A DNA stretch of 64,000 nucleotides from assembly GCA_018262715.1 (NCBI GenBank), contig JADFDS010000040.1, positions 24,340-88,339 of the forward strand. The letters run 5' to 3'. This stretch comes from Bacteroidota bacterium (GTDB taxonomy: Bacteria > Bacteroidota > Bacteroidia > Bacteroidales > VadinHA17). Positions 8,821 through 52,485 of the stretch are shown here, one piece after another. The notes beneath the pieces are model-generated. The model saw only the letters and a program-made list of their open reading frames with translations. It searched no databases and was not told where the DNA came from. Numbering within the stretch: the first letter of the stretch is position 1; each line of letters begins with the position of its first letter. The translations under genes were made by a program, and so were the position numbers.

Positions 8821-8985
8821 TGGGAATTTTTGGTCGTCTTCTATGATTTCTGCAAATATGCTCACTTCAGGGCAGTGTTGATAAATTCATTCTGTTCTTA
8901 TCACCGTGCCGTTGAGAATGAGCCAATATACAAATATTTTATCTTATTTTAGCGAGGCTGTCGCGCAGCAAAAAATCAGGCAATC

Positions 8986-12946: not shown

Positions 12947-13070
12947 TCCCTGAACAATTTCCCTGAATTTATGGTTAAATATACGAATTCAATTCATATA
13001 ACGGCTGAAACCACTTCCGGCATATAAATTGAGGTAATTTTTAGTTATATTGGCTTCGTATATTCAGGCT

Positions 13071-16000
13071 ATGAGGGTAAAACAGAGGGCAACCGCAGTG
13101 TTGGCGGCCATTATGCTGCTGCTTAACCTGCCCGATGCTGATTCCCAGGCTTATGCCGGAAGGACGGCCGGTGACAAACCTGGCGTAAAAGTGTCGCGTC
13201 AGCTGTCTGATTTCATTTACCGCTCAGGTGAATCAGAATTTCAGACCATCACCGACCCTTCAGGCAAGTACCTGAGGCTGTTTCTTCCCGGGCACCATCA
13301 GTCTCCCGAGACCGGACAGCCCGAGCTGCCCGTGTGGAGCCGGCTGGTTGAAGTACCGGATGGAATGGAGGTGGTTGTCTCCATCTCGGAAGTGAGTTCA
13401 CGCAGAATCCGGTTCGCTGACCGGGGAGCCCCTCAGGCCGAGCTTTTCCCGGCACAGCCGGCAAGGACCAAGAATCAGGTACGTGATGACAGGATAACCG
13501 TAAAGGACCGAAAAGCCTATGGCAGCCGGAACACCCTGATGCATGACACCGTAAGGGTGACTCATGAAGGCATATTCAGGGGCCGCCGTCTGGCAAACAT
13601 CGCAGTCTATCCGGCTTTCTACAATCCAGGGGGCAGATACGTTGATCTTATCACGTCAATGAAGGTGGAGATCGGGTTCAGACCGGAAGCAACAAAGGGT
13701 GAAGAGGATACGGAGGATCCGGTCAACAAGGGCGGATTTGCTTCAGACTCCTATATTACAGGCTACACTGACCGGCCGGTTCACATGATCATAGTCACCG
13801 ACTCCATCTTCCGGAAACATCTTGAGCCACTGGTCAGATGGAAAACACTGAAGGGAATACGTACAACTGTAATTTACAGGAAATCAGGGCCTGCTGACAC
13901 AGTATACAAGGATCTGAAAAACAGGATATCAACCGTTTATTTCAGTCTTCAGGAAAAGGGGATCCCGGTACATTACCTGATGATCGCCGGCGATCAGTCC
14001 ATAATACCCACATCACGCGGTACCACCAATGTGTCAGACCTTTACTACGGCGAGTTTGACGGCCAGGGCGACTATATCCCCGAACTGTTCATTGGCAGAC
14101 TTCCGGCATCAGATACCACCCAGATGAAGGGGATGGTCAAAAAGATTATCGATTACGAGACAAACAGGTTTGGTCCCGCTATTGACAACTGGTCACGGGC
14201 ACTGGCCACCGCTGGGAATGCGCCGGGATTTGAGCTCTATATGAACGGACAGGTGTCATACATCTACAACACTTACCTGAAAGCAGACAAATCCCTGAAT
14301 GCCATCGGCTGGCTGTATCCCGACGCTCCTCAGAAGGATGACTCGCTGAAGACCGTTTTCAACAAGGGAGTCAGCATACTTAATTACACCGGTCACGGTG
14401 AAGCCACCGGCTTCAGCGACCCTGCTTTCAGAACCTCAATGATGAACGAGTTCAGCAATGAAAACAAGTACCCTCTCATCATAGCCAATGCCTGCCGTAC
14501 AGCCCAGATAAACGTTGCATCGTGCTTTGGCACAGCCATGGTTGCCACCCCGAACAAGGGGGCCATCGGTTATATAGGATGTACAAATGACTCTTACTGG
14601 AGCGATGATTTCTTCTGGTCAGTGGGTCCGGGAACACCAGGGCCGAATGTCACCTTCGAGACTACCGGTGCAGGCGCCTTTGACAGGCTGTTCCATACAC
14701 ACGGTGAGCCTCCGGGCGAATGGTACTACACCATGGGTCAGGTAAACTTTTCCGGAAACATGTCCGTATCGGCCAGTACCAGTCCGCGAAAGAAGTATTA
14801 CTGGGAGACGTACATGCTGCTGGGTGATCCTTCCTTGTCTCCGGTAATAGGAAGGCCTGACACTTTCAGGATTGACCTTCCGGACAGGGTGCCCCAGCAA
14901 CTGCAGGTCCTTAGTTTCTTTACCGGGCCTTTTGCATATGCAGCACTGTCAGATTTCGACACGCTTTGGGATGCCAGGTTCGTCAGTCCTTCCGGGAACA
15001 TCTCTCTGGCCGTCCCGGCAGGCGTCAAGGACTCATGCCTCCTGGTGGTCACAGGACAGAATATGCTTCCTTTCTACAAGACCATCCATTTCGGTGATGT
15101 GCCTGAACCATTCATAACCGTCGGCGACATAGTATTCGATGACGCCGATGGCAATGGAAACGGCCTCCCCGACTACAGTGAACCGGTGAATCTGCAGGTT
15201 ACGGTGAAGAATATCGGAAAGATGCGTACCTCAAAGATGACAGCCCGGCTAAGCGTCGCCTCCGGGATGATAACCGTGGAAGCTGATACTGCCACGATAG
15301 GGGTGTTGCTCCCGGGACAGACACGCACAATAACCGGAAAGTTCATCTTCAGGGTTTCAGACAGTGTGGAGGACGGCGAGCTGGCTGCCCTGCTGCTCAG
15401 CATCAAGGATGGCAGCGAAGAGTACAGGTACGGCATTGATATGACTCTTAATGCCCCGGAACTGAAGATTATTTCAGCCATTCATGACGATTCCTCGCTG
15501 GGAAATTCCAATTTCCTTCCCGATCCGGGGGAAAAACTGCATCTCCGGGTCAGGGTAAAAAATGACGGATCAGCTGCTGCCACCGGGTTGGTGAAGATAA
15601 CCCCTGCCGGACCAATGCTTACCGTATACCAGCCCGAGCTGGCTACTGACAGCATCAAACCAGGGCAGGTGAAGGATATTTATTTTGAGACAGAAATCTC
15701 ACCCCTTGCCGGATCCGGGAAGGTTATCCCCTATGACGTAAGCTTCATTTGCGGCAAATATGAGGCAAGGGGCAGGTGGTCAGTCAGTACGGGGAAAACA
15801 CGCGAAACCTGGGAGTTCGACAGGTTCGACGTGTTCCCGTGGATACTTAATGGCGAATACCCGTGGATAATAACATCCTCGGTATCGTATGAGAACGTTT
15901 TTTCAGCACGGTCAGCCCCTATACCTGACAAAACGGAATCGATCCTTGCCATATATGTCAACAATCCGGTAGCCGACACCATGTCATTTTTTGTACGGGT

Positions 16001-16805
16001 CTCCTCCGAACCCATATATGACGAGCTTACCTTCAGGGTAGACAGCGTCACTGACATGCAGATCTCGGGTGACACACCCTGGGCACAAAGAAAGAAAGTG
16101 CTGAAGCCGGGCGTACACCTGCTGGAGTGGATATATTCAAAGGATGTCTCACTCTCGGGCGGACTTGACGGAGCATGGCTCGACCAGGTTACATTCCCCG
16201 ACATTTCGTTCCTTGAGGCAGACCTGCATATTGATTCGGTCTTTGCTCCCCCAGCAGAGGCAATGCTTTCGGAGGTGACCGTGAAAGGGAGGGTGATCAA
16301 CCTTGGACGCAACGCACTGACAAGCTTCCCGCTGGCATACAGTATCAATGAAGGGGAATTGGTCAATGAAACCTTCTACAGGAAAATAGACCCGGGTGAC
16401 ACTGTTGATGTGGCTTTCACACAGAAATGCAGTCTGCTGAAGGATATACCATATCATATTCATATTTTCAGCCGGCTGCCTGAAGACGGTTATGCAGGAA
16501 ATGATACCGCATTCGTTTCGTTTGTCATATCCGGAACCGGACCGGAAATCAATGAGGATCAGGTAATCCTGCATCCCAATCCTTTCAATGAGGATTTCTC
16601 GCTTGAAGTTGACTTCGGGGGAAGTGAGACGGCAGGCTTTGAACTGTTTGATGCTTCGGGAAGGATCGTCATGCAGTCAGAGGCTGAGCTGTCGCCCGGC
16701 AGGAACCGGATTCCGTTCAATTGCCGGCACCTTGGATCTGGTATCTATACCCTTCGGATCACATACGGGGGCAGGAGCTTCTCGATGAAGGCAGTTAAAA
16801 AGTGA
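13071..16805 (+). CDS. Peptidase C25 (gingipain-family) protein with T9SS C-terminal sorting domain
   Basis: Propeptide-like N-terminus (GQPELPV). Catalytic-type motifs NYTGHGEATGF (His) and IANACRTAQ (Cys). C-terminal Por_Secre_tail-like segment (ILHPNPFNEDFSLEV...GIYTLRITYGGRSFSMKAVK). ATG 13071 preferred over TTG 13050. Confidence 0.85.
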   Translation: MRVKQRATAVLAAIMLLLNLPDADSQAYAGRTAGDKPGVKVSRQLSDFIYRSGESEFQTITDPSGKYLRLFLPGHHQSPETGQPELPVWSRLVEVPDGMEVVVSISEVSSRRIRFADRGAPQAELFPAQPARTKNQVRDDRITVKDRKAYGSRNTLMHDTVRVTHEGIFRGRRLANIAVYPAFYNPGGRYVDLITSMKVEIGFRPEATKGEEDTEDPVNKGGFASDSYITGYTDRPVHMIIVTDSIFRKHLEPLVRWKTLKGIRTTVIYRKSGPADTVYKDLKNRISTVYFSLQEKGIPVHYLMIAGDQSIIPTSRGTTNVSDLYYGEFDGQGDYIPELFIGRLPASDTTQMKGMVKKIIDYETNRFGPAIDNWSRALATAGNAPGFELYMNGQVSYIYNTYLKADKSLNAIGWLYPDAPQKDDSLKTVFNKGVSILNYTGHGEATGFSDPAFRTSMMNEFSNENKYPLIIANACRTAQINVASCFGTAMVATPNKGAIGYIGCTNDSYWSDDFFWSVGPGTPGPNVTFETTGAGAFDRLFHTHGEPPGEWYYTMGQVNFSGNMSVSASTSPRKKYYWETYMLLGDPSLSPVIGRPDTFRIDLPDRVPQQLQVLSFFTGPFAYAALSDFDTLWDARFVSPSGNISLAVPAGVKDSCLLVVTGQNMLPFYKTIHFGDVPEPFITVGDIVFDDADGNGNGLPDYSEPVNLQVTVKNIGKMRTSKMTARLSVASGMITVEADTATIGVLLPGQTRTITGKFIFRVSDSVEDGELAALLLSIKDGSEEYRYGIDMTLNAPELKIISAIHDDSSLGNSNFLPDPGEKLHLRVRVKNDGSAAATGLVKITPAGPMLTVYQPELATDSIKPGQVKDIYFETEISPLAGSGKVIPYDVSFICGKYEARGRWSVSTGKTRETWEFDRFDVFPWILNGEYPWIITSSVSYENVFSARSAPIPDKTESILAIYVNNPVADTMSFFVRVSSEPIYDELTFRVDSVTDMQISGDTPWAQRKKVLKPGVHLLEWIYSKDVSLSGGLDGAWLDQVTFPDISFLEADLHIDSVFAPPAEAMLSEVTVKGRVINLGRNALTSFPLAYSINEGELVNETFYRKIDPGDTVDVAFTQKCSLLKDIPYHIHIFSRLPEDGYAGNDTAFVSFVISGTGPEINEDQVILHPNPFNEDFSLEVDFGGSETAGFELFDASGRIVMQSEAELSPGRNRIPFNCRHLGSGIYTLRITYGGRSFSMKAVKK

Positions 16806-31933: not shown

Positions 31934-32002
31934 GATACGGCTTTGTTGTAATCAGGTATCTAAGGTAGCAAAAAGCTTTATCTCCTATGGGAAATTTACT
32001 AT

Positions 32003-32761
32003 CTATTGCTTTTTGCCCAGCAAATCCATTAAGCCGTTAATGAACGTCAACGGATGGGCAGGATTGCCGGGAATGTAAAGATCAATATGATGATTTTCAA
32101 TGAAATTCCTCTTAATGGCAGGACTGCCGGCAAAGAGCCCTCCGCTGATGGCGTCAGTGCCGACAAGAATGATTAACCTTGGCGCAGGAGTTGCTTCGTA
32201 GCAGATCTCCAGTGCCCTGGACATGTTTTCGGAAACAGGACCGGTGATGACAATTCCGTCGGCATGACGGGGTGAAGCCACAAATTCAATTCCGTACCTG
32301 CCCATATCAAAATTCACGTTCCCCGTTGCCCCCAGTTCCATCTCGCATGAGTTATCGCCTCCTGCCGACACCTGGCGGAGTTTCAGGGACTGCCTGAACA
32401 ACCTGCGGATCTCCTTCCTGACAGCAGTCTCATCTATCCGGACCGGATCAGCCTGGCCGGGCTTTATGACCAGGTCTTCCTTCCTGGTGGCAGCAATACG
32501 GTAGTCATTGGTGAACCTGTAAACCTCCGGCATTGCCAATGCACACTCATTGCAGAAGGAGCACCTGCCAAGATCAATGGCACCGCTGTTGCCGTCAATG
32601 GCGCCTGCCGGGCATAACGCAGCAGCTCTTCCGGCCAGGGCTGCAGTAATATCTGCTGAGATTACCGGCCTGCCCCTGAACAGGGCAGAGACGGGTTGAT
32701 TACGGAGATCAGGTACGTACTGTTTGCCGTGATCGGCGAGTATTTTAATCTCTTTTAGCAT
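32003..32761 (-). CDS. NuoB/HycG-like small subunit of the Hyf/Ech-like complex, fused to a half-degenerate ferredoxin segment; proximal-cluster cysteines mostly lost
   Basis: NuoB/HycG family blocks RHADGIVITGPVS, GTDAISGG and YIPGNPAHP. The expected Cys positions read D136, C139, D203 and N233. N-terminal AxxAxxAxxxCP (40-51) plus CxxCxxCxxxMP (67-78). Confidence 0.85.
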   Translation of the reverse strand: MLKEIKILADHGKQYVPDLRNQPVSALFRGRPVISADITAALAGRAAALCPAGAIDGNSGAIDLGRCSFCNECALAMPEVYRFTNDYRIAATRKEDLVIKPGQADPVRIDETAVRKEIRRLFRQSLKLRQVSAGGDNSCEMELGATGNVNFDMGRYGIEFVASPRHADGIVITGPVSENMSRALEICYEATPAPRLIILVGTDAISGGLFAGSPAIKRNFIENHHIDLYIPGNPAHPLTFINGLMDLLGKKQ

Positions 32762-32778
32762 TGCCTTTCAGGTATTAT

Positions 32779-34299
32779 CTACAGGTCGTTGCCACAGTAA
32801 GAAAGGTTAAAGCTCTTGTTGCATACCGGGAAATCAGATATCTCCTGGCTTCGTACGGCAAGGACAAGGGCCATCCAGTTATGCATGGAGGGATCCTTGA
32901 CCTTATACATGGCCAGCTTTCCGTCACTGTCAGTCACCGCCACATGGCATATCTCCCCTCTCCATCCTTCTGTCGCCGAGACAGCCAGGCAGTCAGGCCT
33001 GAATTTCAGGTCATACTGCGGTCTGCCGGTCTCCTTCGCACCACTTCTCCAACTGTCAATCAGCCTGCGGATAATCTCCACCGATTCTTTTACTTCAAGG
33101 GCACGGAGCATCCCACGGGCGAGAACGTCACCCGTTTCCTGCATCACCGGGTTGATCTCCATCTTCCTGTAATACTGGAAGGGATGGGTCGCACGCATAT
33201 CCCTGGGCACCCCGCAGGTGCGTGCAGCCATACCCACCGCGCCTATGGAAGTTGCCTGCTTCCGCGTAACATTACCTATATCCTCAAAGCGCCCGAGAAC
33301 GCTTGGAAGGGTATAAACACAACCGGTAACATTGCCGTATCTCCTGTCAACATCTTCCAGAACCCTGAGTATTTCGACCGCGGACTCCTCAGTGAGCGGG
33401 AAGTTCGATCCGCCGGGACGTATAAGGCCCTTCCCAAACCGGTTTCCACACCAAAACTGGGTTGTGTTTATTACCATTGTTCTCAGAGCCTCGCAAGCCA
33501 CCTGTCCCAACTGGTAAGCCACATCACCGCACAGAGCAGCCGTATCACCTATGTGCACGGCAATTCGTTCAAGCTCCAGGGCAATGCAGCGCTCGGCCTG
33601 GAGTGAAACCGGAGGCTCAAAACCTGCCAGCGATTCAGCCAGCTGTGCATGTGCCAGACCGTGTGCCACGGCACTGTCGCCTGCAATGTCTTCCGCAAGG
33701 AGTGCCCGACGCAGACTGTCACCGGCAGACGTGAGGAGCTTCTCAATACCCCGGTGCTGGTATCCAAGCTGAATCTCAAGATGCAGTACCCTCTCACCGT
33801 TGCATATGAACCGGAAGTGACCGGGCTCGATCACACCTGCATGAATGGGCCCCACTCCCACCTCATGAAGCTCCTCGCTCTCCATGCTGTAGAATGGATA
33901 GTTATCCATCACACTGAGCCTGTCAGCCCTGTCATGCGGATACCTCACCGGTTTGAGCCAGGGATGACCCTCGAAAACCACACCATGATTTTCATGTATC
34001 TCACGTTCAAATATATGCATCGCGTAACACGACGCCGTCAACGACTTCAGCGACGTGCCGTCATCTTTCTTAATGTGGCTTAGTATCCTTATCTCCCCGG
34101 AACCGTCATCGGCAATGATGCAGATGAACCTGAATCCTTCGCCGGTCCTGAAACAGGAGTAGCTCAGGCAATGATAACGTTCATCTGTCAGCATGGAGGT
34201 GACTTCTTCATGGAACAGGTCATAACCGATCACCGGGATCTCAGAAAATCCTGCGGGTGACGAACCGTTCCTGACTACTGTATACCTGTTGCTGCTCAT
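32779..34299 (-). CDS. HycE/HyfG-like (NuoC-NuoD fusion) large subunit lacking [NiFe] cysteine ligands
   Basis: NuoC-like FEREIHENHGVVFEGHP. NuoD/large-subunit blocks GPIHAGVIEPGHFRF and GYQHRGIEKL. The L1 position reads AGDSAVAH (nt 33661-33684) instead of CGxCxxxH. The C-terminus reads FNLSYCGNDL with no CxxC. Confidence 0.9.
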   Translation of the reverse strand: MSSNRYTVVRNGSSPAGFSEIPVIGYDLFHEEVTSMLTDERYHCLSYSCFRTGEGFRFICIIADDGSGEIRILSHIKKDDGTSLKSLTASCYAMHIFEREIHENHGVVFEGHPWLKPVRYPHDRADRLSVMDNYPFYSMESEELHEVGVGPIHAGVIEPGHFRFICNGERVLHLEIQLGYQHRGIEKLLTSAGDSLRRALLAEDIAGDSAVAHGLAHAQLAESLAGFEPPVSLQAERCIALELERIAVHIGDTAALCGDVAYQLGQVACEALRTMVINTTQFWCGNRFGKGLIRPGGSNFPLTEESAVEILRVLEDVDRRYGNVTGCVYTLPSVLGRFEDIGNVTRKQATSIGAVGMAARTCGVPRDMRATHPFQYYRKMEINPVMQETGDVLARGMLRALEVKESVEIIRRLIDSWRSGAKETGRPQYDLKFRPDCLAVSATEGWRGEICHVAVTDSDGKLAMYKVKDPSMHNWMALVLAVRSQEISDFPVCNKSFNLSYCGNDL

Positions 34300-34304
34300 G
34301 ATTT

Positions 34305-35732
34305 CTATCTGGGTAGCGATGAGATGCTGGTGCTGATCAGGTCAGTAAGAAAGGGTGGCTGCCAGAAGCAGATCATAATCACGAGGGCCAGCAGGATGAA
34401 CTGGCTGACCGTCTCTACCGGGCTGACCATGCCCGGTTGCAGCAATTCACTGTCATTCCTCGGTGATGAAAAGCTGACATGCATTATCCTCGTGCTCATC
34501 GCATAAATTATATAGCAGAGAAGAATGACTGTCAAAGCCATGACCAGCCACTGGCCGTTGACTACCATCGCCCTGAGGATCATAAGTTCAGAGATGAACA
34601 TTCCTGACGGGGGTATGGCAAGAATGCAGATCATGCCTGTCATAAGCACCATAGCCCCTGCGGGATAGAGTTTCATATACCTGCCGCTTTCATCGAGCCT
34701 GAATGTGTGAAGGATCCTTGAAAGCTGTCCCATCTGGTAAAAAAGGCTTGACTTGGCTAAAGAATGGAGTACTATAAGCAGCAGGGCGGCATAATAGCCG
34801 TATCCGCCAACACCCAGGGCGATTGCAACAAGTCCCATATTCTCGAGGCTCGAGTATGCAAGCATGCGTTTCAGATGTTTTGCCTTCAGCATGTAACCGG
34901 CAGCTATAAGCAACGAAAGTACACCGGCCAGGATAAGTACATTACTCATGAATGAGAGCGCCGGAGTGCCGGAAAAAAGCGTGTAAACGCGATAGATGGC
35001 AAGGAATCCCACATTCATCAGGGTGGTGGAGATGAGCGCGCTCACAGGAGGTGGCGCCACAGAGTGGGCATCGATGGTGACTGTATGCATGGGAAAGAGA
35101 CCCATCTTGGTGCTGAATCCCACCAGCACAAATATGAACGCTATCTTGAGATACAGGGGATTGGCGTTGCTGATAACGTGACTAAAAGAGGAGAAGGAGA
35201 GGTTCGGGGCATCGCCGCGTCCGTAGATAAATCCCAGGAATAGGATTCCGAGGTAAGCCAAAGCAATACCCGTGGAACAAATAAATACGTATTTCCACGT
35301 AGCCTCCAGCGCCATCTCAGTGCGGTCGTGGTAGATGAGCACCGCCACGGCAAGGGTGGTTGCCTCCACGAAAATCCACAGAACCGTCATCGTGTTGGCC
35401 AGGTACGCTCCGGCCATGAATGTCATAAGTGCTATCAGCCCGGAGTGATATATATTAAGTCTCTTGACGGTGTCATCACGGGTATAGATAAAGCCATGGT
35501 AAACCGTAGGAAGAGTCAGCAGGGTCAGTACTGACAACAGCAGCACCGCCGTACTGTCATAGGTGAACCAGGTGAGTTCGGTGTTGCCCCTGTTAATCCA
35601 GGCGTGAACCGTAATGGCAATGAGAAGGGCAGAGAACGCAAGTGCAAATGCCCTCGTCAGTCCCCTGTTCCGGGAGAGGAGTGTAACGCCGCTCAGCGCC
35701 AGTGACAGTATGAAGAAGAGCAACAGCATCAT
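34305..35732 (-). CDS. HyfF/NuoN-like antiporter-type membrane subunit
   Basis: Polytopic. Mrp/Nuo antiporter-like blocks WIFVEATTLAV, GFSTKMGLFPMHT, MLAYSSLENMG and HSLAKSSLF. Confidence 0.85.
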   Translation of the reverse strand: MMLLLFFILSLALSGVTLLSRNRGLTRAFALAFSALLIAITVHAWINRGNTELTWFTYDSTAVLLLSVLTLLTLPTVYHGFIYTRDDTVKRLNIYHSGLIALMTFMAGAYLANTMTVLWIFVEATTLAVAVLIYHDRTEMALEATWKYVFICSTGIALAYLGILFLGFIYGRGDAPNLSFSSFSHVISNANPLYLKIAFIFVLVGFSTKMGLFPMHTVTIDAHSVAPPPVSALISTTLMNVGFLAIYRVYTLFSGTPALSFMSNVLILAGVLSLLIAAGYMLKAKHLKRMLAYSSLENMGLVAIALGVGGYGYYAALLLIVLHSLAKSSLFYQMGQLSRILHTFRLDESGRYMKLYPAGAMVLMTGMICILAIPPSGMFISELMILRAMVVNGQWLVMALTVILLCYIIYAMSTRIMHVSFSSPRNDSELLQPGMVSPVETVSQFILLALVIMICFWQPPFLTDLISTSISSLPR

Positions 35733-35734
35733 CC

Positions 35735-36349
35735 TTAATCCTTTAACATGGTCAGTTCATTTGTATGCGGCTTGAGCCGAAGCCCGAAAAAGCCCAGGAT
35801 CAGGACACCTACGAAGATGTCAAGAAGTATCCCGATGTTGATAAGCATCGGCATCTCATTGCCTATGGCCAGAGAAAAGAGGAAGACCGCATTCTCAACC
35901 ACAAGGAACCCGATCAGGTGCGAAATAATGAGCTTGTGGGTCACAATCAGAAGCAACCCGGTCAGAAGGGTGAACAGTGCTATTGCAAGGTATATCGAAT
36001 TGATGAAGGGATTCACAAGGATCACGGCAAGAATAACACTGATCAGCAGTCCCGCTATTGAAAAAAGCAGCAGGTAAAACCCGGGAACAGCCTGCCTGTG
36101 CACCTTTGTCACACCCGACTTCCGGATAATCCGGCTCAGCAGGTATGGCAGAAGCAGAGTCTTGAAAAGCAGCGTCTCTGCCACTATGAAGAGCAGGTTT
36201 GCCAGGTTGACCTCCTTAAGTTCAAACACTGCAATACCGCACAGCAGAAGGCCCTGCAGCGCCACCAGCCTTACATACGTACTCAGCCTTTCTGCCGAGG
36301 CAAAGTAGATGAGAGTCACCGCAAAGAGAACTATAAGGTAGTTTACCAT
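35735..36349 (-). CDS. HyfE-like small membrane subunit (NuoK-related)
   Basis: 204 aa with about 6 TM helices and an intramembrane Glu (FLVVENAVFLF). Its position between the HyfC-like and HyfF-like genes matches hyf gene order. Confidence 0.7.
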   Translation of the reverse strand: MVNYLIVLFAVTLIYFASAERLSTYVRLVALQGLLLCGIAVFELKEVNLANLLFIVAETLLFKTLLLPYLLSRIIRKSGVTKVHRQAVPGFYLLLFSIAGLLISVILAVILVNPFINSIYLAIALFTLLTGLLLIVTHKLIISHLIGFLVVENAVFLFSLAIGNEMPMLINIGILLDIFVGVLILGFFGLRLKPHTNELTMLKD

Positions 36350-36355
36350 TTCCTT

Positions 36356-37270
36356 TCAGGCCAGTTTTTCAGTCAGTATCAGAATAACCATAAACGCGAT
36401 GAGGGCTATCGAGGACAGAGTCAGGATGAACTTCGGATTCTTGTTCATCTTGTTCCTTGCCCTGAATGATTCCGTAAATCCGATTACCACGGCAAAAAGA
36501 GCCTGCACAGCGAAAAAGAGCCCGGTCTGCAGAATCACATTCCATCCGGCAGGTACAACGAGATTATATATCAGCGAGCCATAGATGGCAAATTTCAGGT
36601 ATGTGCCAATATGGATCAGCGCCTTATCGAAGCCGCTGTAGTCAAGTATCATCACCTCGTGGATCATGGTCAGCTCAAGGTGTGTCTTCGGATCGTCGAC
36701 AGGCAGCCTGCTGTTTTCTATCATGGCAATCTGAACCAGGAGATAAGCCCCTATAATACTGTAAATCAACACATAATCATTCCCGGTAATAAAGAAGTGG
36801 TTAAATATTACGGAAAATGAGGTGTATCCGGTGAACATTGCAAAGGTGGCAATCAGAATGAAGAAGGCCGGTTCAACAAGCATTGAGAAGAGGGCTTCAC
36901 GGCTGGCTCCCATCCCTTCAAAGCTGCTTCCGGTATCAAGAGCTGCAATTATCGTAAAAAACTTTCCGAGAGCTAGCAGGTAAGCGAACATGATGAAATC
37001 GCCCTCAAAGGAAAGCACTGCCTTTTGCTCCGCAAAGGGCAGAAACAGCATGGCTCCGGTGACTGTTGCCAGGGTGACCGACGGAGCTATTCTGAAAATC
37101 AGGCCGGTGGTGTCACTGAATACACTCCCTTTCCTGAACAGGACAGCAATATCCTTCCATGGCTGGAATATACCCGGGCCTTTGCGTCCGGAGGCGATGC
37201 TCTTCGTCCGGAGGATTACTCCGGGGAAAAAGAAGGCTGCGACAGCTATGAGTACAAATCCTGCCATCAT
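36356..37270 (-). CDS. HycD/HyfC/NuoH-like membrane subunit
   Basis: Signature block ENSRLPVDDPKTHLELTMIHEVMILDYSG (compare the HycD/NuoH family) and N-terminal RTKSIASGRKGPGIFQPWKD. Confidence 0.85.
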   Translation of the reverse strand: MMAGFVLIAVAAFFFPGVILRTKSIASGRKGPGIFQPWKDIAVLFRKGSVFSDTTGLIFRIAPSVTLATVTGAMLFLPFAEQKAVLSFEGDFIMFAYLLALGKFFTIIAALDTGSSFEGMGASREALFSMLVEPAFFILIATFAMFTGYTSFSVIFNHFFITGNDYVLIYSIIGAYLLVQIAMIENSRLPVDDPKTHLELTMIHEVMILDYSGFDKALIHIGTYLKFAIYGSLIYNLVVPAGWNVILQTGLFFAVQALFAVVIGFTESFRARNKMNKNPKFILTLSSIALIAFMVILILTEKLA

Positions 37271-39264
37271 CAGATTATTTTGAGCATTGCCAGCAACAAT
37301 ACAAGCAACATGAAGACAAATGCATAGAGAATATAATGTCTTATCTGACCGGTCTGCATCACGGCTATCCTTTTAAGCAATCCCGAGACCAGGTCAACCG
37401 GCCTGTCTACAAGGTGTCGCTTGAAGAGGTCATCGCTGTGCGAAAGGAATTTCCTCCCATGAGGGAATATCTCATCCTCTCCGATCTCTTCAATTTCCTT
37501 CCTGGTCTGCAGCAATGGCTTGGCGATGTGGTTATAGTTGTAGGCGAACGATGTTGCTGTATACTGTTGCTTCGCTGACCCGGCCGTATAGCCGCAGCCC
37601 CAGGTGGGGCCGGTTTCCACCACGCGCCGGCTCAGGTGATACCTCCGGTAGAGCAGAAGCACGGCAACAGTGACGACAAATATCCCTCCTGCCAGGCTGA
37701 GCTGAGCCAGATTGGCGGTGAAGGCTCCGGAGACCAGTGGCTGTGCGCCCAGGTTCCATATCTGCCCGACAATGCCAAAAACCGGTTTCACCACCAGCGG
37801 TGATCCAAGCCCGATAAAGATGATCATGGCTGCAGTGGCCAGCTGCGGATAAATCATGGATTTTCCCGCCTCACGGGCATGTCCGGCCTGATCTGACCTC
37901 GGCTCGCCAAGAAACACGATTCCGAAAGCCTTGGTGAAGCAGAAGATAGCAAGTCCGCCAATAAGTGACAATGCTGCAATTGACCCCACAATGAGTATGG
38001 AGTGGAAGAGATTGGCACCGGAAAGGCTGCCGAACATCCCCATATATATCAGGTATTCAGAGATAAAACCGTTGAACGGCGGCAGTCCGCAGATAGCCAG
38101 CGATCCGGTCAGAAACAGGATGGCAGTCCATGGCATCCGTTTCATCAGGCCTCCCGTTTGCTCCATATTGCGAGTATGGGCAGCCAGGTAAACAGAGCCG
38201 GCATTAAAGAAGAGCAGTGACTTGAAAAGAGAATGATTCAGGACGTGGAGAAGGCCTCCTGAATAGCCAAGCAGGGAAAGGGTATGATTGCCTGTTGCCT
38301 GGCCTATGACTCCCAGGCCGAGACCAATTCCGATAATGCCTATGTTCTCGATGCTGTGATAGGCGAGCAGCCTTTTAAGGTCATGCTGGACTATAGCCAT
38401 CATCACACCCAGGACTCCTGATACGAGAGATATAATCAGGATAATGACACCCGTGACCAGCAGGTCTGACTGCATTGCAGCCAGTACCCTTACGATACCG
38501 TAAATGCCCATCTTGATCATCACCCCTGACATCACCCCTGAGACATGTGACGGGGCAGCCGGATGCGCCTCAGGAAGCCATGTGTGCAGCGGAATGAATC
38601 CGGCCTTGATGGCAAAACCGGCAAAGAAGAGCAGGAATACCGGGAGGTTTCGGTGTCTGCCAAAATATTCACCGAGTGCGTCGAAGCTCATCCTTCCTGT
38701 ATCCTGCTGTACAATCAGGAATGCGACAAGAATGAAGAACATGCCCACATGCATCTGGATGAGATAGCTGATTCCTGTCTTCATGATGCTCCTCTCTTCC
38801 GCATCGAAGATCACGAGGAAGAACGATGAGAGAGCCATTATCTCCCATACTATCAGGAAAGAAAGCCCGTCACGCACCATCACAACCATAAGCATTGAAA
38901 TCCACAGCCACAGGTATGAGAAGTAATGGATTGAAAAACGGAGAGCGTTCATCCGGGCACGGTAAGGCTCAAGATACCCCCTGGCGTAGAGGAACCCGAC
39001 AAGTACGGTAAAATTGATGACAAGAATGAAAAAAGCAGAAAGACTGTCAATTACCAGCACCATCCTGGTGCCTGTTGCCGCAGTGAACAGGGATAATTCG
39101 CAGGTCTGCCCGGCGTCTGGAAGCACACCTGTACACCATGATGTGGAAAGTGCAATCCCTGCTGTCAGGAGGCCCAGGGTAAAGTAATACTTCAGCCATT
39201 CAGGCACTGCAAAGACGAACAGTGAGAGAAGCAAGATGACCAGAAAGGCTGTTGATCCAAACAT
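37270..39264 (-). CDS. HyfB/HycC/NuoL-like antiporter-type membrane subunit
   Basis: 664 aa, polytopic. Blocks WEIMALSSF, GFAIKAGFIPLHTWLPEAHPAAPS, LLAYHSIENIG and NHSLFKSLLF. Its stop overlaps the next gene's ATG by 1 nt (TGATG). Confidence 0.9.
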   Translation of the reverse strand: MFGSTAFLVILLLSLFVFAVPEWLKYYFTLGLLTAGIALSTSWCTGVLPDAGQTCELSLFTAATGTRMVLVIDSLSAFFILVINFTVLVGFLYARGYLEPYRARMNALRFSIHYFSYLWLWISMLMVVMVRDGLSFLIVWEIMALSSFFLVIFDAEERSIMKTGISYLIQMHVGMFFILVAFLIVQQDTGRMSFDALGEYFGRHRNLPVFLLFFAGFAIKAGFIPLHTWLPEAHPAAPSHVSGVMSGVMIKMGIYGIVRVLAAMQSDLLVTGVIILIISLVSGVLGVMMAIVQHDLKRLLAYHSIENIGIIGIGLGLGVIGQATGNHTLSLLGYSGGLLHVLNHSLFKSLLFFNAGSVYLAAHTRNMEQTGGLMKRMPWTAILFLTGSLAICGLPPFNGFISEYLIYMGMFGSLSGANLFHSILIVGSIAALSLIGGLAIFCFTKAFGIVFLGEPRSDQAGHAREAGKSMIYPQLATAAMIIFIGLGSPLVVKPVFGIVGQIWNLGAQPLVSGAFTANLAQLSLAGGIFVVTVAVLLLYRRYHLSRRVVETGPTWGCGYTAGSAKQQYTATSFAYNYNHIAKPLLQTRKEIEEIGEDEIFPHGRKFLSHSDDLFKRHLVDRPVDLVSGLLKRIAVMQTGQIRHYILYAFVFMLLVLLLAMLKII

Positions 39265-39291: not shown

Positions 39292-39326
39292 AAAAATATA
39301 TTATCCGGTTATACTTTAAACCGGAT
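39292..39326 (-). terminator. Candidate rho-independent terminator of the upstream GH109-like gene
   Basis: Read on the minus strand: ATCCGGTT-TAAAGTAT-AACCGGAT (39326-39303), followed by AATATATTTTTT. Confidence 0.45.
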
Positions 39327-39344: not shown

Positions 39345-40808
39345 TTATATCTCCAGCTGGTTGTTGCCGCCCTTGAGGCCTATCACCATTGTATTTCCGC
39401 CTGCCGGGATGTTGGGGTCAAAAGGAAGATTTGCCTTGTATGATCCGCAGGTAAAGTCCGGTACATCAATTGATGACGACCTGTTTGCCACTGACCATTC
39501 GCTGAGAGGGGTGATAACGCTCCAGAGGGCGGCGTCATAGACATCCTGGTCGAGAGGCAGTCCGTTTCGCAGGCAGTCTATCAGCCTCCAGTCCATGATG
39601 AAGTCCATCCCGCCGTGACCACCTATGACCTTTGCCATCTCTCCCACCCTTTTAACAATCTCAGGTGTGTACTGAGCCTCAAGGGCAGCCTGATCCTCAG
39701 GTTTCAGCCATGAATGGCCGAGGGCTATCCTTGCCGGTGATGGCCACTTCTGGGCAAATCCTTTGGTGCCGCTGACGAGATGTATCCTCGAATATGGCCT
39801 CGGGCTTGAAACGTCATGCTGGATCATAATGCTCCTTCCGAGTGCCGTCTTTACCAGAGTGGTGTTCATGTTGCCACGGTAACTCTTCCCGGCAAATGGA
39901 GCATAAAACGGGTCCTCCTTTGCCAGTTGTTCCAGCTCCGGTCCCATGGCGAAATCATTTGATGAGAGTGATGTCAGGTATTCCATCCTGTCACCCCTGT
40001 TGATGTTCATTATCTGACAGACCGGTCCCAGGCCATGGGTCGGGTAAAGGTCGCCGTTGCGCACATTTTCCTTCAGCCTCCACATGTCAGCATAACCGTT
40101 CTTATCATAGGTGAAGTCCCATCGCAGGTCATGGATATAAGCCCCCTCCCCGTGCACTATGTCGCCAAAGAGTCCCTGGCGTGCCATGTTAAGTGTCAGC
40201 AGCTCAAAAAAGTCATAGCAGCAGTTTTCAAGCTGCATGCAGTGTTTCTTTGTCCGCTCGGATACCTCAACAAGTTGCCAGCACTCCTCCACAGTCTTTG
40301 CAGCGGGTACTTCCACCGCCACATGCTTGCCTGCTTCCATGGCATAGACAGCCATAGGGGTGTGCCATGCCCAGGGTGTGCAAATGTAAACAAGGTCGAT
40401 GTCGGGGTCATCACACAATCCTTTCCATGCTTCCTCGCTGCCGCTGAAGCCCTTTGCCTGTGGCAGCCCGAACTTTGTGAGCATCGCCTGCGCCTTTTCA
40501 ACCCTGTCGGGATACTTGTCGCAGAGCGAAGCTATCTCTACCCCTTCTATGTGTGCCATCCGCTCGACGGCACCCGGACCCCTCATTCCGAGGCCGATGA
40601 AACCTATCCTGATTTTTCCCAGCGGCGGAGCAGCATAGCCTGACATGTTGAAGCTCTGGTTGTGTACGGCCATTGCTGCCGCCCTGACCTCTGCCATGGC
40701 TTCGGTTGATTTTTCTCGGCGGACACATGAGGATGTACTGACAGCCGTCAGAGTTCCTGCTCCGGCAACTGCAGCAGTGCGGAGAAAATTCCTTCTGTTG
40801 GTTTTCAT
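39345..40808 (-). CDS. Tat-exported Gfo/Idh/MocA family oxidoreductase, GH109-like
   Basis: Twin-arginine signal MKTNRRNFLRTAAVAGAG. Rossmann motif RIGFIGLGMRGPG. Length and architecture resemble NAD-dependent GH109-type enzymes. ATG 40808 preferred over 40850. Confidence 0.8.
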   Translation of the reverse strand: MKTNRRNFLRTAAVAGAGTLTAVSTSSCVRREKSTEAMAEVRAAAMAVHNQSFNMSGYAAPPLGKIRIGFIGLGMRGPGAVERMAHIEGVEIASLCDKYPDRVEKAQAMLTKFGLPQAKGFSGSEEAWKGLCDDPDIDLVYICTPWAWHTPMAVYAMEAGKHVAVEVPAAKTVEECWQLVEVSERTKKHCMQLENCCYDFFELLTLNMARQGLFGDIVHGEGAYIHDLRWDFTYDKNGYADMWRLKENVRNGDLYPTHGLGPVCQIMNINRGDRMEYLTSLSSNDFAMGPELEQLAKEDPFYAPFAGKSYRGNMNTTLVKTALGRSIMIQHDVSSPRPYSRIHLVSGTKGFAQKWPSPARIALGHSWLKPEDQAALEAQYTPEIVKRVGEMAKVIGGHGGMDFIMDWRLIDCLRNGLPLDQDVYDAALWSVITPLSEWSVANRSSSIDVPDFTCGSYKANLPFDPNIPAGGNTMVIGLKGGNNQLEI

Positions 40809-40947
40809 GGTTAGGTAAGTTTCGAAATGGATTATGTATGCAATATACAATGTTTCCGATTACAATATTATGTCCGCGGCTGGAAGTCAAATGGCTTAAA
40901 GGGGGCACCCGGGCCGGGCTTCTCGGAATGAGCCGGACAGCCACTTC

Positions 40948-50285: not shown

Positions 50286-50864
50286 TCACCTGGCAGCTGC
50301 CGCATCCCTCCCGGCACGCAGTGCCTTCAGATTGACCTCAACAACCTCTTCTCCCTTGCGGCCGAACATCTTCCTGACCGCATCTTCGAGCGCCGTGAAG
50401 GGCATCGAGATGAATGACGAAGCAGCACCCAGGATGACCATGTTGCCTGATCTGGCTGATCCCAGGTCACGTGCAATGCCGTCTGCATCAAGCACAATGG
50501 TGTTACCCGCCCTGTTAAGTTCAGCCAGCACCTCTCCTACCTCCGGGTAATCGGAGATATTCACGAAGGGAACCGAATTGGTAACCAGCCATCCGCTCTC
50601 TGAGAGCCATGGCAGATAACGAAGTGCCTCCATGGGTTCAACACTTATGATGAGATCTGCACCTCCGTGCGGTATAAGATCTGAAAAAATCTCGCTGTCG
50701 GAGAGACGCAGGTGCGACTGCACGTCGCCCCCGCGCTGGCTCATACCATGTACCTCCGCCTGCTTGAGGAAGAGGTTCTGTTCAACGGCTGCAAGCCCTA
50801 TCGTGGCTGCAATGGAGAGAATACCCTGTCCTCCCACTCCTGCAAGTATAATATCACATTTCAT
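50286..50864 (-). CDS. iorB: Indolepyruvate:ferredoxin oxidoreductase subunit beta
   Basis: N-terminal MKCDIILAGVGGQGILS (OFOR gamma-type domain). Starts 1 nt after iorA. Confidence 0.9.
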   Translation of the reverse strand: MKCDIILAGVGGQGILSIAATIGLAAVEQNLFLKQAEVHGMSQRGGDVQSHLRLSDSEIFSDLIPHGGADLIISVEPMEALRYLPWLSESGWLVTNSVPFVNISDYPEVGEVLAELNRAGNTIVLDADGIARDLGSARSGNMVILGAASSFISMPFTALEDAVRKMFGRKGEEVVEVNLKALRAGRDAAAAR

Positions 50865-50865
50865 A

Positions 50866-52485
50866 TCATTCCCTTGATTTGTTTTTCTCAGCCGCTTCGG
50901 CCTTTTTGTTGCGTGATGCCGTCTGGATGCACTCCCGTCTTGCCAGTATCACCGAGATACCGTGATAATTGAGTTCAGCGCGGATAACGGCTTTGTTCTC
51001 CTCATGATTCTTTCTCAGAGGCACTATCACCTTCAGGTGATCAGGATCAACACCCAGCCCCAGGCAGATGCTCTCAAGCCTGTCAGTGGCCTGCGATTTC
51101 TGCCCCCCGGTCATCCCGGTGGTGGAGTTGTCAGAGATAATCAGTGTTACCGGTGAATTCTTGATCACCGCATCAAGCAGTCCTGTCATGCCTGAATGGG
51201 TAAATGTGGAGTCACCTATCACGGCCACTGCCGGAAACAGACCGGCATCTGCAGCTCCGATTGCCATTGTCACCGAGGCTCCCATATCAACACACGAATT
51301 GACCATGTTGTATGGTGGCAGGGCGCCGAGGGTATAACAGCCGATATCTGAAAAGACGCGTCCGGGCCCGGCTTCTGCCATTACCTCTGACAACGCCTGG
51401 TACAGGTCGGCATGTCCGCAGCCCTTGCAGAACGACGGGGGACGCTGACGCACCAGCGAGGGAACCTCCCTGCCCTGACCGGCCCTGAGACCCAGGGCAC
51501 TGGCAACAATTGACGGATTAAGCTCCCCGTCGCGGGGTACCGTACCGTCCATCCTGCCCAGAACTTTGACGTCACGGTCAAGAAGACCCCTTAGCTGCTC
51601 CTCGATTATCGGATAACCCTCTTCCAGCACAAGAACCCTGTCACAGTTTTCCACCAATGCTGCAACCTTTTCCCTTTTGAGGGGATAAGCACCCACTGAT
51701 AGAACGTGATAATCTCCTGCTCGGTCAGCAATGTTTTCCATCAGGTAATTGTAAGCAATCCCGCAGGTAATGACCCCTGTGCCCCTGCCGTTTCCGGATT
51801 TCAGCCTGTTGAGCCCGTCAACAGCATCGTCAGTGCGCAGTTTCTCATAAACCGCTGTAAGAGCCCTGTACTGCTTCCTGGCTATCGCTGGAAGAAGCAC
51901 AAACTGCCGCGGATTCGAAGGCAGGGCAACACTGTTCTGAGCAATCTTTTCCCTCCGTGCAACAGATGACCTTGAATGTGCCAGCCTGGTTGTAATCCTG
52001 AACAACACAGGAAGCCTGTACTTCTCCGAGAGGGCAAAGGCTTCAAAGATCATGTCATAGGCCTCCTGCTGGTTACGCGGCTCCATTACCGGAACCAGGG
52101 CAAACTTGCCATAAAAGCGCGAGTCCTGCTCATTCTGGGATGAATGCATTGACGGATCATCTGCTGATACAACCACCAGCCCGCCGTTGACTCCCGTCAC
52201 CGCCGAGTTGATGAACGCATCAGCCGCCACATTCAACCCTACATGCTTCATTGCAACCATCGCCCTCTTGCCTGCATATGACATCCCCAGGGCAGCCTCC
52301 ATGGCTGTCTTCTCATTTGACGACCATTCACGGTGAACACCGTCCGCAGCAGCCTGCGGCGAAGCCTGGATGTACTCCATAATCTCAGTTGACGGAGTAC
52401 CCGGATAAGCATACATTCCGCTCAGGCCTGCATCCAGGGCAGCCTGCGCAATAGCCTCATCTCCAAGCAATAAGAGTTTATGCAT
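50866..52485 (-). CDS. iorA: Indolepyruvate:ferredoxin oxidoreductase subunit alpha (TPP enzyme)
   Basis: N-terminal LLLGDEAIAQAALDAGLSGMYAYPGTPSTEI. TPP-binding region GDSTFTHSGMTGL. Paired with iorB. Confidence 0.9.
   Translation of the reverse strand: MHKLLLLGDEAIAQAALDAGLSGMYAYPGTPSTEIMEYIQASPQAAADGVHREWSSNEKTAMEAALGMSYAGKRAMVAMKHVGLNVAADAFINSAVTGVNGGLVVVSADDPSMHSSQNEQDSRFYGKFALVPVMEPRNQQEAYDMIFEAFALSEKYRLPVLFRITTRLAHSRSSVARREKIAQNSVALPSNPRQFVLLPAIARKQYRALTAVYEKLRTDDAVDGLNRLKSGNGRGTGVITCGIAYNYLMENIADRAGDYHVLSVGAYPLKREKVAALVENCDRVLVLEEGYPIIEEQLRGLLDRDVKVLGRMDGTVPRDGELNPSIVASALGLRAGQGREVPSLVRQRPPSFCKGCGHADLYQALSEVMAEAGPGRVFSDIGCYTLGALPPYNMVNSCVDMGASVTMAIGAADAGLFPAVAVIGDSTFTHSGMTGLLDAVIKNSPVTLIISDNSTTGMTGGQKSQATDRLESICLGLGVDPDHLKVIVPLRKNHEENKAVIRAELNYHGISVILARRECIQTASRNKKAEAAEKNKSRE

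Follow-up and report, generated by a model that had tools for sequence, protein, structure and literature searches.

Energy-converting or Ech-hydrogenase-related (Ehr) complexes were reportedly named by Coppi (2005), in connection with GSU0739-45 of Geobacter sulfurreducens, and are said to have been surveyed by Marreiros et al. (2013). They are spread over many phyla, including Geobacter, Nitrospira, ammonia-oxidising archaea, Margulisbacteria, candidate phyla radiation (CPR) bacteria and, as described here, Bacteroidales and Cloacimonetes. In the literature that we searched, their function is given as unknown, and some accounts assume the passage of electrons. The Geobacter complex, for which EhrA, EhrC, EhrL and EhrS are named, has a six-gene composition that matches the one reported below (PMC7894505). 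The Margulisbacteria complex combines a NuoC-NuoD fusion, a NuoI-NuoB fusion, HyfB, HyfF, NuoH and HyfE (PMC6349859, supplementary note 4), and its description still assumes that electrons are passed to the membrane subunits (PMC6349859). Here, we analysed a stretch of 64,000 nucleotides (the window) from a Bacteroidota bacterium of the VadinHA17 group of Bacteroidales (GCA_018262715.1, contig JADFDS010000040.1, positions 24,340 to 88,339), which carries an ehr operon on its minus strand. The small subunit of this complex, EhrS, is predicted to hold one [4Fe-4S] cluster in place of three, and carries two aspartates at former ligand positions of the terminal cluster.

Mbh of Pyrococcus furiosus (6cfw) and MBS/Mbx (6u8y), a relative of the hydrogenases that has lost the nickel-iron (NiFe) site and is still energy-transducing, both keep all three [4Fe-4S] clusters; the proximal cluster, which is missing from EhrS, is the proposed catalytic site of MBS. 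Mrp antiporters are not known to contain homologues of NuoB, NuoD, NuoH, or NuoI. In the HycF/NuoI-type family, the order of the clusters is N6a-N6b-N2, with ferredoxin donating to N6a; N6a is held by three cysteines of motif 1 and the Cys-Pro cysteine of motif 2, and N6b by the Cys-Pro cysteine of motif 1 and three cysteines of motif 2 (PMC6358722).

The ehrS gene, last in the operon, is an open reading frame (ORF) of 252 amino acids on the minus strand at 32003-32761. Pfam (Oxidored_q6, NuoB family; residues 138-247, E = 2e-19), PDB matches to MbhJ and HycG, an AlphaFold2 (AF2) model, Foldseek, and the ratio of non-synonymous to synonymous substitution rates (dN/dS) all bear on its description as a small subunit combining a HycF/NuoI-like and a HycG/NuoB-like domain. 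For the N-terminal domain (residues 1-100; 32462-32761), Pfam returned a weak, single-cluster Fer4 match (residues 62-93). NCBIfam aligned residues 18-100 with positions 19-109 of the HycF family profile (NF009053, E = 5.8e-6) and residues 1-100 with positions 1-109 of HyfH, the domain being colinear with HycF/HyfH/NuoI from residue 1. The top PDB sequence matches of this segment were HycF, MBS subunit N (NuoI-like), NuoI, and MbhN; in the alignments to HycF, MBS subunit N, and NuoI, the second motif of EhrS paired with their second CxxCxxCxxxCP. An earlier reading of the DNA (the original prediction) had described the extension as a remnant two-cluster ferredoxin: a remnant two-cluster domain it is, though one of HycF/HyfH/NuoI type, given this colinearity, and not a generic ferredoxin. 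The C-terminal domain (residues 125-252; 32006-32389) was identified by Pfam, HMMER, and Foldseek as NuoB/HycG-like, apparently without the N2/proximal cluster. The AF2 model, built on an alignment of 146 sequences, had a predicted local distance difference test score (pLDDT) of 91.2, reaching 96-97 in the HycF-like domain, and a predicted template modelling score (pTM) of 0.88. Foldseek superposed its C-terminal domain on MbhJ with a root-mean-square deviation of 2.0 Å over 131 columns (template modelling score 0.84), and also matched it to the PSST subunits of complex I. On these matches, EhrS is a HycF/NuoI-HycG/NuoB fusion, as described for Ehr complexes.

EhrS contains six cysteines in total, at positions 50, 67, 70, 73, 139, and 187. 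In place of two CxxCxxCxxxCP motifs, the N-terminal domain reads AxxAxxAxxxCP (A40, A43, A46, and C50-P51) and CxxCxxCxxxMP (C67, C70, C73, and M77-P78), so that one cluster site is complete. The cysteines of this site (C50, followed by P51, with C67, C70, and C73; 32543-32614) are invariant in the alignment of 146 sequences. This surviving ligand set is the equivalent of that of N6b, since the four residues match its ligand pattern (PMC6358722). The other set, A40, A43, A46, and M77 (followed by P78), occupies the former N6a ligand positions (32531-32644, overlapping the N6b span); these now hold variable small or hydrophobic residues, and a relative described below has cysteine at all four.

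In the C-terminal domain, HMMER aligned the EhrS segments G-G-D136-N-S-C139-E, G-T-D203-A-I-S-G-G, and P-G-N233-P with S-C-N-G-C-D-I-E, G-A-C, and P-G-C-P of MbhJ (6cfw_J, E = 3.6e-20), and with G-G-C-N-G-C-E-I-E, G-A-C-G-N-S-G-G, and P-G-C-P-P of HycG (7z0s_G, E = 4.5e-18). By these alignments to solved structures, the four ligand positions of the N2/proximal cluster are D136, C139, D203, and N233, with cysteine kept only at 139. D136-N-S-C139 stands in place of the C-x-x-C of ligands 1 and 2 (32345-32356), D203 in place of ligand 3 (G-A-C to G-T-D; 32153-32155), and N233 in place of ligand 4 (P-G-C-P to P-G-N-P; 32063-32065). Overall, judging from its ligand residues, EhrS keeps one of the three ancestral [4Fe-4S] sites, namely the middle one, N6b, having lost N6a on the entry side as well as N2 on the exit side. 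All of the residues quoted in the original prediction were present, including the D/C/D/N reading of the N2 positions and the one complete ligand set (C50 with C67, C70, and C73) in the remnant two-cluster domain. Its proposal of a remodelled electron-entry site does not fit this pattern, as the lost set is precisely the entry cluster, the exit cluster is lost with it, and the middle one is kept.

The conservation of these positions was determined in two alignments. Homologues numbered in the thousands when 5.8 billion proteins were searched; for the first alignment, EhrS was combined with the 120 best clusters, all at least 71% identical (121 rows); the organism-named members of these clusters were Bacteroidales metagenome-assembled genomes (MAGs). 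C50, P51, C67, and C70 were found in 121 of the 121 rows and C73 in 120. D136, C139, and N233 were likewise present in all 121 rows, and D203 in 119, the remaining two having Glu. Positions 40, 43, 46, and 77, on the other hand, were freely variable. Such a pattern goes well past what chance would give. In the wider alignment of 146 sequences, which extended down to about 30% identity, C50, C67, C70, and C73 were among only 22 invariant columns, and D136 and D203 were at least 90% conserved. Pairwise dN/dS of ehrS ranged from 0.05 to 0.12 overall and from 0.03 to 0.08 in the NuoB-like domain, which had the lower value in five of the six pairs for which both domains could be computed. The substitutions in EhrS are kept by strong purifying selection and are not the result of decay, because dN/dS is low, the ligand and replacement positions are invariant or nearly so, and synteny is kept; on this point, which the original prediction had left to a comparison of orthologues, its expectation of selection rather than random decay was right.

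The wider relatives of EhrS were collected by a search of 1.84 billion cluster representatives and two further homologue searches, and fell into two lineages. In lineage 1, to which the Bacteroidales proteins belong, the nearest relatives with cysteine at all N2 positions were 45-52% identical to EhrS and came from Cloacimonetes (P0408, locus L090), Wallbacteria (P0129, locus L091), and a third source (P0499, locus L092). Their large subunits carry motifs of the Bacteroidales type and no NiFe cysteines, which makes them Ehr complexes too. Within this lineage, the cluster sites form a graded series. P0499, 52% identical to EhrS, has all three sites (N6a, N6b, and N2), with cysteine at all four former N6a positions; its operon (GCA_037975375.1, JBAWSS010000007.1, 3324-10759) already encodes an EhrL that lacks the NiFe cysteines and is preceded, at a distance of 2.4 kb, by a PFOR gene. 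The Cloacimonetes and Wallbacteria proteins have two sites, N6b and N2, a state found in 94 of the 121 aligned sequences of that set. The Bacteroidales proteins, finally, have N6b only, which completes a three-, two-, and one-cluster series sharing a single type of EhrL motif. The single-cluster state of the N-terminal domain is not peculiar to EhrS, since it also occurs in many relatives in which all four N2 cysteines are kept.

Lineage 2 comprises proteins about 30-39% identical to EhrS, with a single N6b-type site as in EhrS, their own, different EhrL motifs, and the gene order B-C-D-L-S-A. The four N2 positions of these proteins read DVDD, DIDD, DEDS, DVDS, or DIDS, with no cysteine. Lineage 2 also has all-Cys members (P0306, P0351, and P0389), and P0351, the one checked, is accompanied by an Ehr-type large subunit (locus L088). 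The two lineages were separated by EhrL identity (43-45% within a lineage versus 25-31% between lineages), and EhrS scored 219-234 bits against the all-Cys proteins P0124, P0125, P0127, and P0129 versus about 120-145 bits against the DVDS-, DIDD-, or DEDS-type members among the matches listed. In a rough neighbour-joining tree, all-Cys and D-x-D forms grouped together within each lineage. As all-Cys members persist on either side, two or more separate origins are most likely for the Asp pair that occupies N2 positions 1 and 3; every such exchange of Cys for Asp (TGY to GAY) takes two nucleotide substitutions. Across the family, the residue at 139 can be C, T, N, V, I, or E, and that at 233 can be N, D, S, or H; even relatives close to the Bacteroidales EhrS read DTDN and DNDH, without cysteine. 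By this comparison, what the family has in common is the pair of Asp residues at 136 and 203 and not the surviving C139, on which the original prediction had placed its emphasis and which is replaced by T, N, V, I, or E outside the Bacteroidales clade.

To describe the former N2 pocket, 120 N2-less Bacteroidales sequences were compared with 117 all-Cys sequences of lineage 1. Only about ten diagnostic differences were found in the NuoB-like domain. Besides the changes at three ligand positions, they comprise A/G to S138, V/I to F160, I/V to F240, E/D to I186, and a handful of conservative replacements, and in this comparison the N2-less EhrS showed no gain of a basic residue. The bulkier F160 and F240 suggest that the former N2 pocket has been filled. 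An Fe-S cluster held at the D/C/D/N site by Asp ligands, a role which had been proposed for the two aspartates, appears unlikely given these Phe gains and because lineage 2 has no cysteine at any of the four positions (DVDD, for example). C139 seems to be specific to its clade and is likewise unlikely to be a key ligand. The charge of the Asp pair could be balanced by a hard cation, by protons, or by salt bridges to EhrL.

The large subunit, EhrL (506 amino acids; 32779-34299), is a NuoC-NuoD/HycE-like fusion (Pfam Complex1_30kDa and Complex1_49kDa) without NiFe ligands. When aligned with E. coli HycE (7z0s_E, E = 4.7e-33), R-V-C-G-I-C is replaced by D-I-A206-G-D208-S209 and D-P-C-Y-S-C by N-L-S500-Y-C502-G503. 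None of the four NiFe cysteines of the canonical motifs (L1, RxCGxCxxxH; L2, DPCxxCxxR/H) is therefore in place, the corresponding residues being A206 and S209, and S500 and G503, and this NiFe-less motif was conserved in 72 orthologues. Throughout lineage 1, the motifs read I-A-G-D208-[ST] and F-P-x-C493-N-K-S-F-x-L-S-Y-C502-G-x-D-L. Moreover, with an overall identity of only 43-45% between the EhrL proteins of Bacteroidales, Cloacimonetes, Wallbacteria, and locus L092, 111 positions did not vary among them (or, within the Bacteroidales orthologues, were conserved to at least 97%); E158, D208, C166, C284, C493, and C502 are among these positions. The residues around the former NiFe motifs may form a new metal or substrate site in place of NiFe. 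Among other changes, the Bacteroidales EhrL gained R366 and R124. Tyr87 of Thermus Nqo4, which we take to be a quinone-binding residue, aligned with G207 of EhrL in a single HMMER alignment, in which His38 could not be cleanly aligned.

The ehr operon consists of six co-oriented, closely spaced genes in the order A-B-C-D-L-S, running from 39264 to 32003. Besides ehrL and ehrS, it encodes EhrA, a HyfB/NuoL-like antiporter-type subunit of 664 amino acids (37270-39264; Pfam Proton_antipo_M; NCBIfam HyfB, E = 1.9e-166); EhrB, a NuoH/HycD-like membrane subunit of 304 amino acids (36356-37270; Pfam NADHdh, E = 1.5e-27); EhrC, a HyfE-like membrane subunit of 204 amino acids without a Pfam match (35735-36349; NCBIfam hydrogenase 4 membrane subunit, E = 3e-12); and EhrD, a HyfF/NuoN-like antiporter-type subunit of 475 amino acids (34305-35732; Pfam Proton_antipo_M; NCBIfam HyfF, E = 2e-70), none of the six operon proteins reaching a curated NCBIfam cut-off. 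The operon thus combines NuoB-, NuoH-, and HyfE-like subunits with two Mrp/NuoL-type subunits and with NuoC-NuoD and NuoI-NuoB fusions. Judging from its motifs and operon composition, the complex is a Bacteroidales member of the Ehr family, because its HycE-homologous large subunit has none of the four NiFe ligands. The order A-B-C-D-L-S was constant in 80 Bacteroidales/Bacteroidota MAG loci wherever the contig extended far enough, and 228 matches were confirmed in the GTDB species set. In the 80 loci, the membrane subunits were generally more conserved than the peripheral subunits; in the two closest genomes (L001 and L002), EhrC was 100% identical at the protein level and EhrS 88-90%. The charged motifs V-E-x-T-T, T-K-x-G-x-x-P-x-H, K-R-x-L-A-Y-S, and H-x-x-x-K, presumably located in transmembrane helices 5, 7, 8, and 11, were present in EhrD when compared with MBS and Mbh subunits and across both lineages, at about 30% identity. 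Since these antiporter-type Glu/Lys motifs are conserved, the ion-translocating machinery of Ehr looks intact.

Compared with other Ehr complexes, the Bacteroidales complex shares the six subunits and differs in gene order from lineage 2 (A-B-C-D-L-S versus B-C-D-L-S-A). It resembles E. coli formate hydrogenlyase and hydrogenase 4 (7z0s) in fold, in its matches to HycG, HycE, and HycF, and in its membrane subunits, which are nearest to HyfB, HyfE, and HyfF. In E. coli, however, HycF and HycG are separate proteins, each with its full cluster cysteine motifs, and HycE has a NiFe site, whereas EhrS is fused and has one cluster site and EhrL is NiFe-less. The NiFe cysteines and the four-Cys proximal cluster by which group 4 [NiFe]-hydrogenases (Hyc/Hyf/Mbh/Ech) are recognised are both missing here, and no hyp maturation or endopeptidase gene was identified among the window ORFs scanned. 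Mbh of P. furiosus provides, in MbhJ, the best structural match to the NuoB-like domain of EhrS. With the Q-module of complex I/NDH-1 (NuoB/NuoD/NuoI; NdhK/H/I), the complex has homologous subunits and the N6a-N6b-N2 ligand logic in common; it differs in having neither N2 nor an NADH or ferredoxin input module, and instead of at least 11 nuo genes including separate NuoA, J, and K, there are six ehr genes bounded by unrelated ones. Mrp antiporters (7qru, 6z16) have antiporter-like subunits with the same conserved Glu/Lys motifs, and the likeness extends to the redox-independent mode that we infer for Ehr here. An Mrp system would be recognised by MrpA-G without a NuoB, NuoD, or NuoH homologue, while the ehr operon has NuoB-, NuoCD-, and NuoH-like genes, keeps a full and strongly conserved peripheral arm, and has just its antiporter-like subunits in common with Mrp. 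The Ehr literature that we searched goes no further than the fusions and the missing NiFe cysteines; it does not mention that N2 ligands are lost, nor the Asp pair or the single-cluster NuoI-like domain, though Coppi (2005) and Marreiros et al. (2013), which lay outside that search, may describe them. The Ehr family itself is known, and we do not claim the N2-less state with its Asp pair and isolated medial cluster as new.

N2 is probably truly absent, so that the chain from an external donor to the pocket of the large subunit would be cut on both sides of the remaining cluster, and the complex would be neither a hydrogenase nor an N2-dependent reductase. With its membrane arm intact, it would most likely be a cation or proton translocator, whose peripheral arm would no longer conduct electrons and whose lone N6b cluster would be kept for its structural role or as a gate that senses redox state. 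The carboxylates of D136 and D203, in the old N2 pocket, would place charge at the interface through which, in relatives, redox site and membrane arm are coupled; there, they could bind a cation or a proton, or form salt bridges. We assign a probability of about one half to this reading as a whole, that is, a redox-independent or redox-gated translocator with a structural or sensing cluster and a charged Asp pair, and a lower one to its functional part. In a bolder version, Ehr would be a complex I-like machine without an electron wire, in which a selected pair of carboxylates took the place of the N2 cubane once the NiFe site had gone, independently in at least two lineages. These carboxylates would bind a cation or proton and so drive or gate the membrane arm, with N6b as a one-electron sensor or switch and the three-, two-, and one-cluster relatives as snapshots of an energy-converting redox enzyme becoming a redox-gated or redox-independent ion transporter. 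This version is speculative, and we would sooner doubt it than adopt it. Several points weigh against the main reading. The cluster content of Ehr is inferred from sequence alone. The invariance of the N6b-type cysteines over very deep divergence would also fit a redox role, so that a purely structural cluster is not proven, and the conservation of 111 positions in EhrL looks like that of a working site and not of a scaffold. The PFOR gene near locus L092 hints that the ancestral complex was ferredoxin-driven, in which case a residual redox function may persist. C139, invariant within Bacteroidales, could help to bind something. Finally, convergence is argued from scores of similarity, from shared motifs, and from a neighbour-joining tree that is rough, and not from a rigorous phylogeny.

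In one alternative, Ehr is still a redox-driven pump. The single N6b-like cluster, exposed by the loss of N6a, would take one electron from ferredoxin and pass it directly to a substrate or a non-cubane metal, bound either in EhrL, at D208/C493/C502 for instance, or close to the former N2 pocket. Such a pump would be like MBS, in which the substrate is reduced by an Fe-S cluster. The four cluster cysteines are invariant at about 30% identity, many polar residues and cysteines are invariant around the former NiFe motifs of EhrL, MBS (6u8y), which has lost NiFe, is a precedent for an Fe-S cluster as the catalytic site, a PFOR gene lies near the three-cluster relative, and the window itself encodes ferredoxin-linked enzymes, such as the IorA-like protein at 50866-52485. 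The distance argues the other way: in Thermus complex I, N6b and N2 are about 14 Å apart from centre to centre, with the quinone or NiFe site a further 12 Å or more from N2, and, by homology, a complex without N2 probably leaves EhrL too far from N6b for electrons to tunnel quickly. Moreover, the stepwise loss from three to two to one cluster within one lineage looks like a progressive abandonment of electron transfer, and no partner oxidoreductase is conserved in the neighbourhood. We consider such a pump doubtful, if a serious competitor. It is considerably less probable that D136, C139, D203, and N233 bind an unusual Fe-S cluster or a redox-active metal that preserves an altered wire to the large subunit. 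Asp can ligate a [4Fe-4S] cluster, as Asp14 does in P. furiosus ferredoxin; the four residues are invariant or nearly so in Bacteroidales; and with no compensating basic residue in EhrS, the carboxylates need a counter-charge, possibly a metal. We know of no precedent, however, for a cubane held by a single Cys together with three O/N ligands. Close relatives with DTDN and DNDH and lineage 2 proteins with DVDD, DIDD, DEDS, or DVDS have no cysteine at any of these positions, F160 and F240 occur only in the N2-less clade and suggest a filled pocket, and the carboxylates would be explained equally well if they held a redox-inert hard cation (Mg, Ca, or Na) or were paired in salt bridges with R366 or R124 of EhrL. 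The loss of the catalytic metal site and of two of the three clusters could also be taken to mean that the peripheral subunits are decaying relics of a former hydrogenase, which we regard as very improbable. A pseudogene or decay reading of ehrS was rejected on dN/dS (0.05-0.12) and synteny, the gene being intact and syntenic in 80 genomes; in addition, the AF2 model has a pLDDT of 91, the replacement residues are (nearly) invariant while dispensable positions drift, and the Asp pair recurs in the second lineage.

The genes around the operon are unrelated to it, with a GH109-like gene upstream and an M49 peptidase gene downstream, and no redox-partner gene was conserved beside the ehr operon among the loci compared in either lineage. 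A terminator-like hairpin in the interval between the GH109-like gene and ehrA (39303-39326, minus strand) is the probable upstream limit of the operon; it is a consensus match only, the regional count of such sites not being above the shuffled expectation. The upstream gene, of the Gfo/Idh/MocA type (39345-40850, minus strand), was considered as a redox partner and rejected: it is GH109-like, carries a twin-arginine signal, and is probably periplasmic, it lies on the far side of the hairpin from ehrA, and other lineages do not have it beside Ehr. It is syntenic in 49 of the 80 loci and was judged to be unrelated to Ehr function. On the downstream side, the gap between ehrS and the M49 peptidase gene is 69 nucleotides here (31934-32002), while in most related loci it is 1.3-2.5 kb, so that one gene appears to be missing from this interval. 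An ORF of 281 amino acids on the plus strand (32761-33606) is antisense to ehrL and almost certainly spurious.

Among the relatives, an HTH_17/PTS_EIIA_2 gene directly precedes the ehr operon at locus L092. At the Wallbacteria locus L091, a gene at 10976-11410 for a regulator of the Rrf2 family, members of which often contain Fe-S, directly follows ehrS. Each of the lineage 2 operons L081, L083/L084, and L085/L086 has two adjacent genes with MutS_V domains nearby and no redox-partner gene, and genes for a universal stress protein and an enolase were found near two of the three (L083/L084 and L085/L086). Elsewhere in the window, the plus strand encodes a large gingipain-like protease (13050-16805), with Peptidase_C25 and propeptide, CARDB, and type IX secretion C-terminal sorting domains, which fits a Bacteroidota origin. 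Next to a DUF6599 gene, the minus strand encodes a fusion of an aldo/keto reductase with a 4Fe-4S dicluster domain (Aldo_ket_red and Fer4_9; 7636-8865). About 11 kb from the ehr operon, the minus strand carries, at 50286-52485, an IorA-like 2-oxoacid:ferredoxin oxidoreductase subunit (POR_N and TPP_enzyme_C; 50866-52485) with an ORF of 192 amino acids downstream; given this gene, the organism appears to have a ferredoxin-linked metabolism.

For the Ehr family, these results mean that a large part of it cannot have the canonical N6a-N6b-N2 wire. The naturally occurring three-, two-, and one-cluster versions, which share one type of EhrL, offer concrete constructs for comparison. They are also relevant to the coupling between redox site and membrane arm in the relatives of complex I, as the terminal cluster would here have been exchanged for fixed charges, with the coupling machinery kept.

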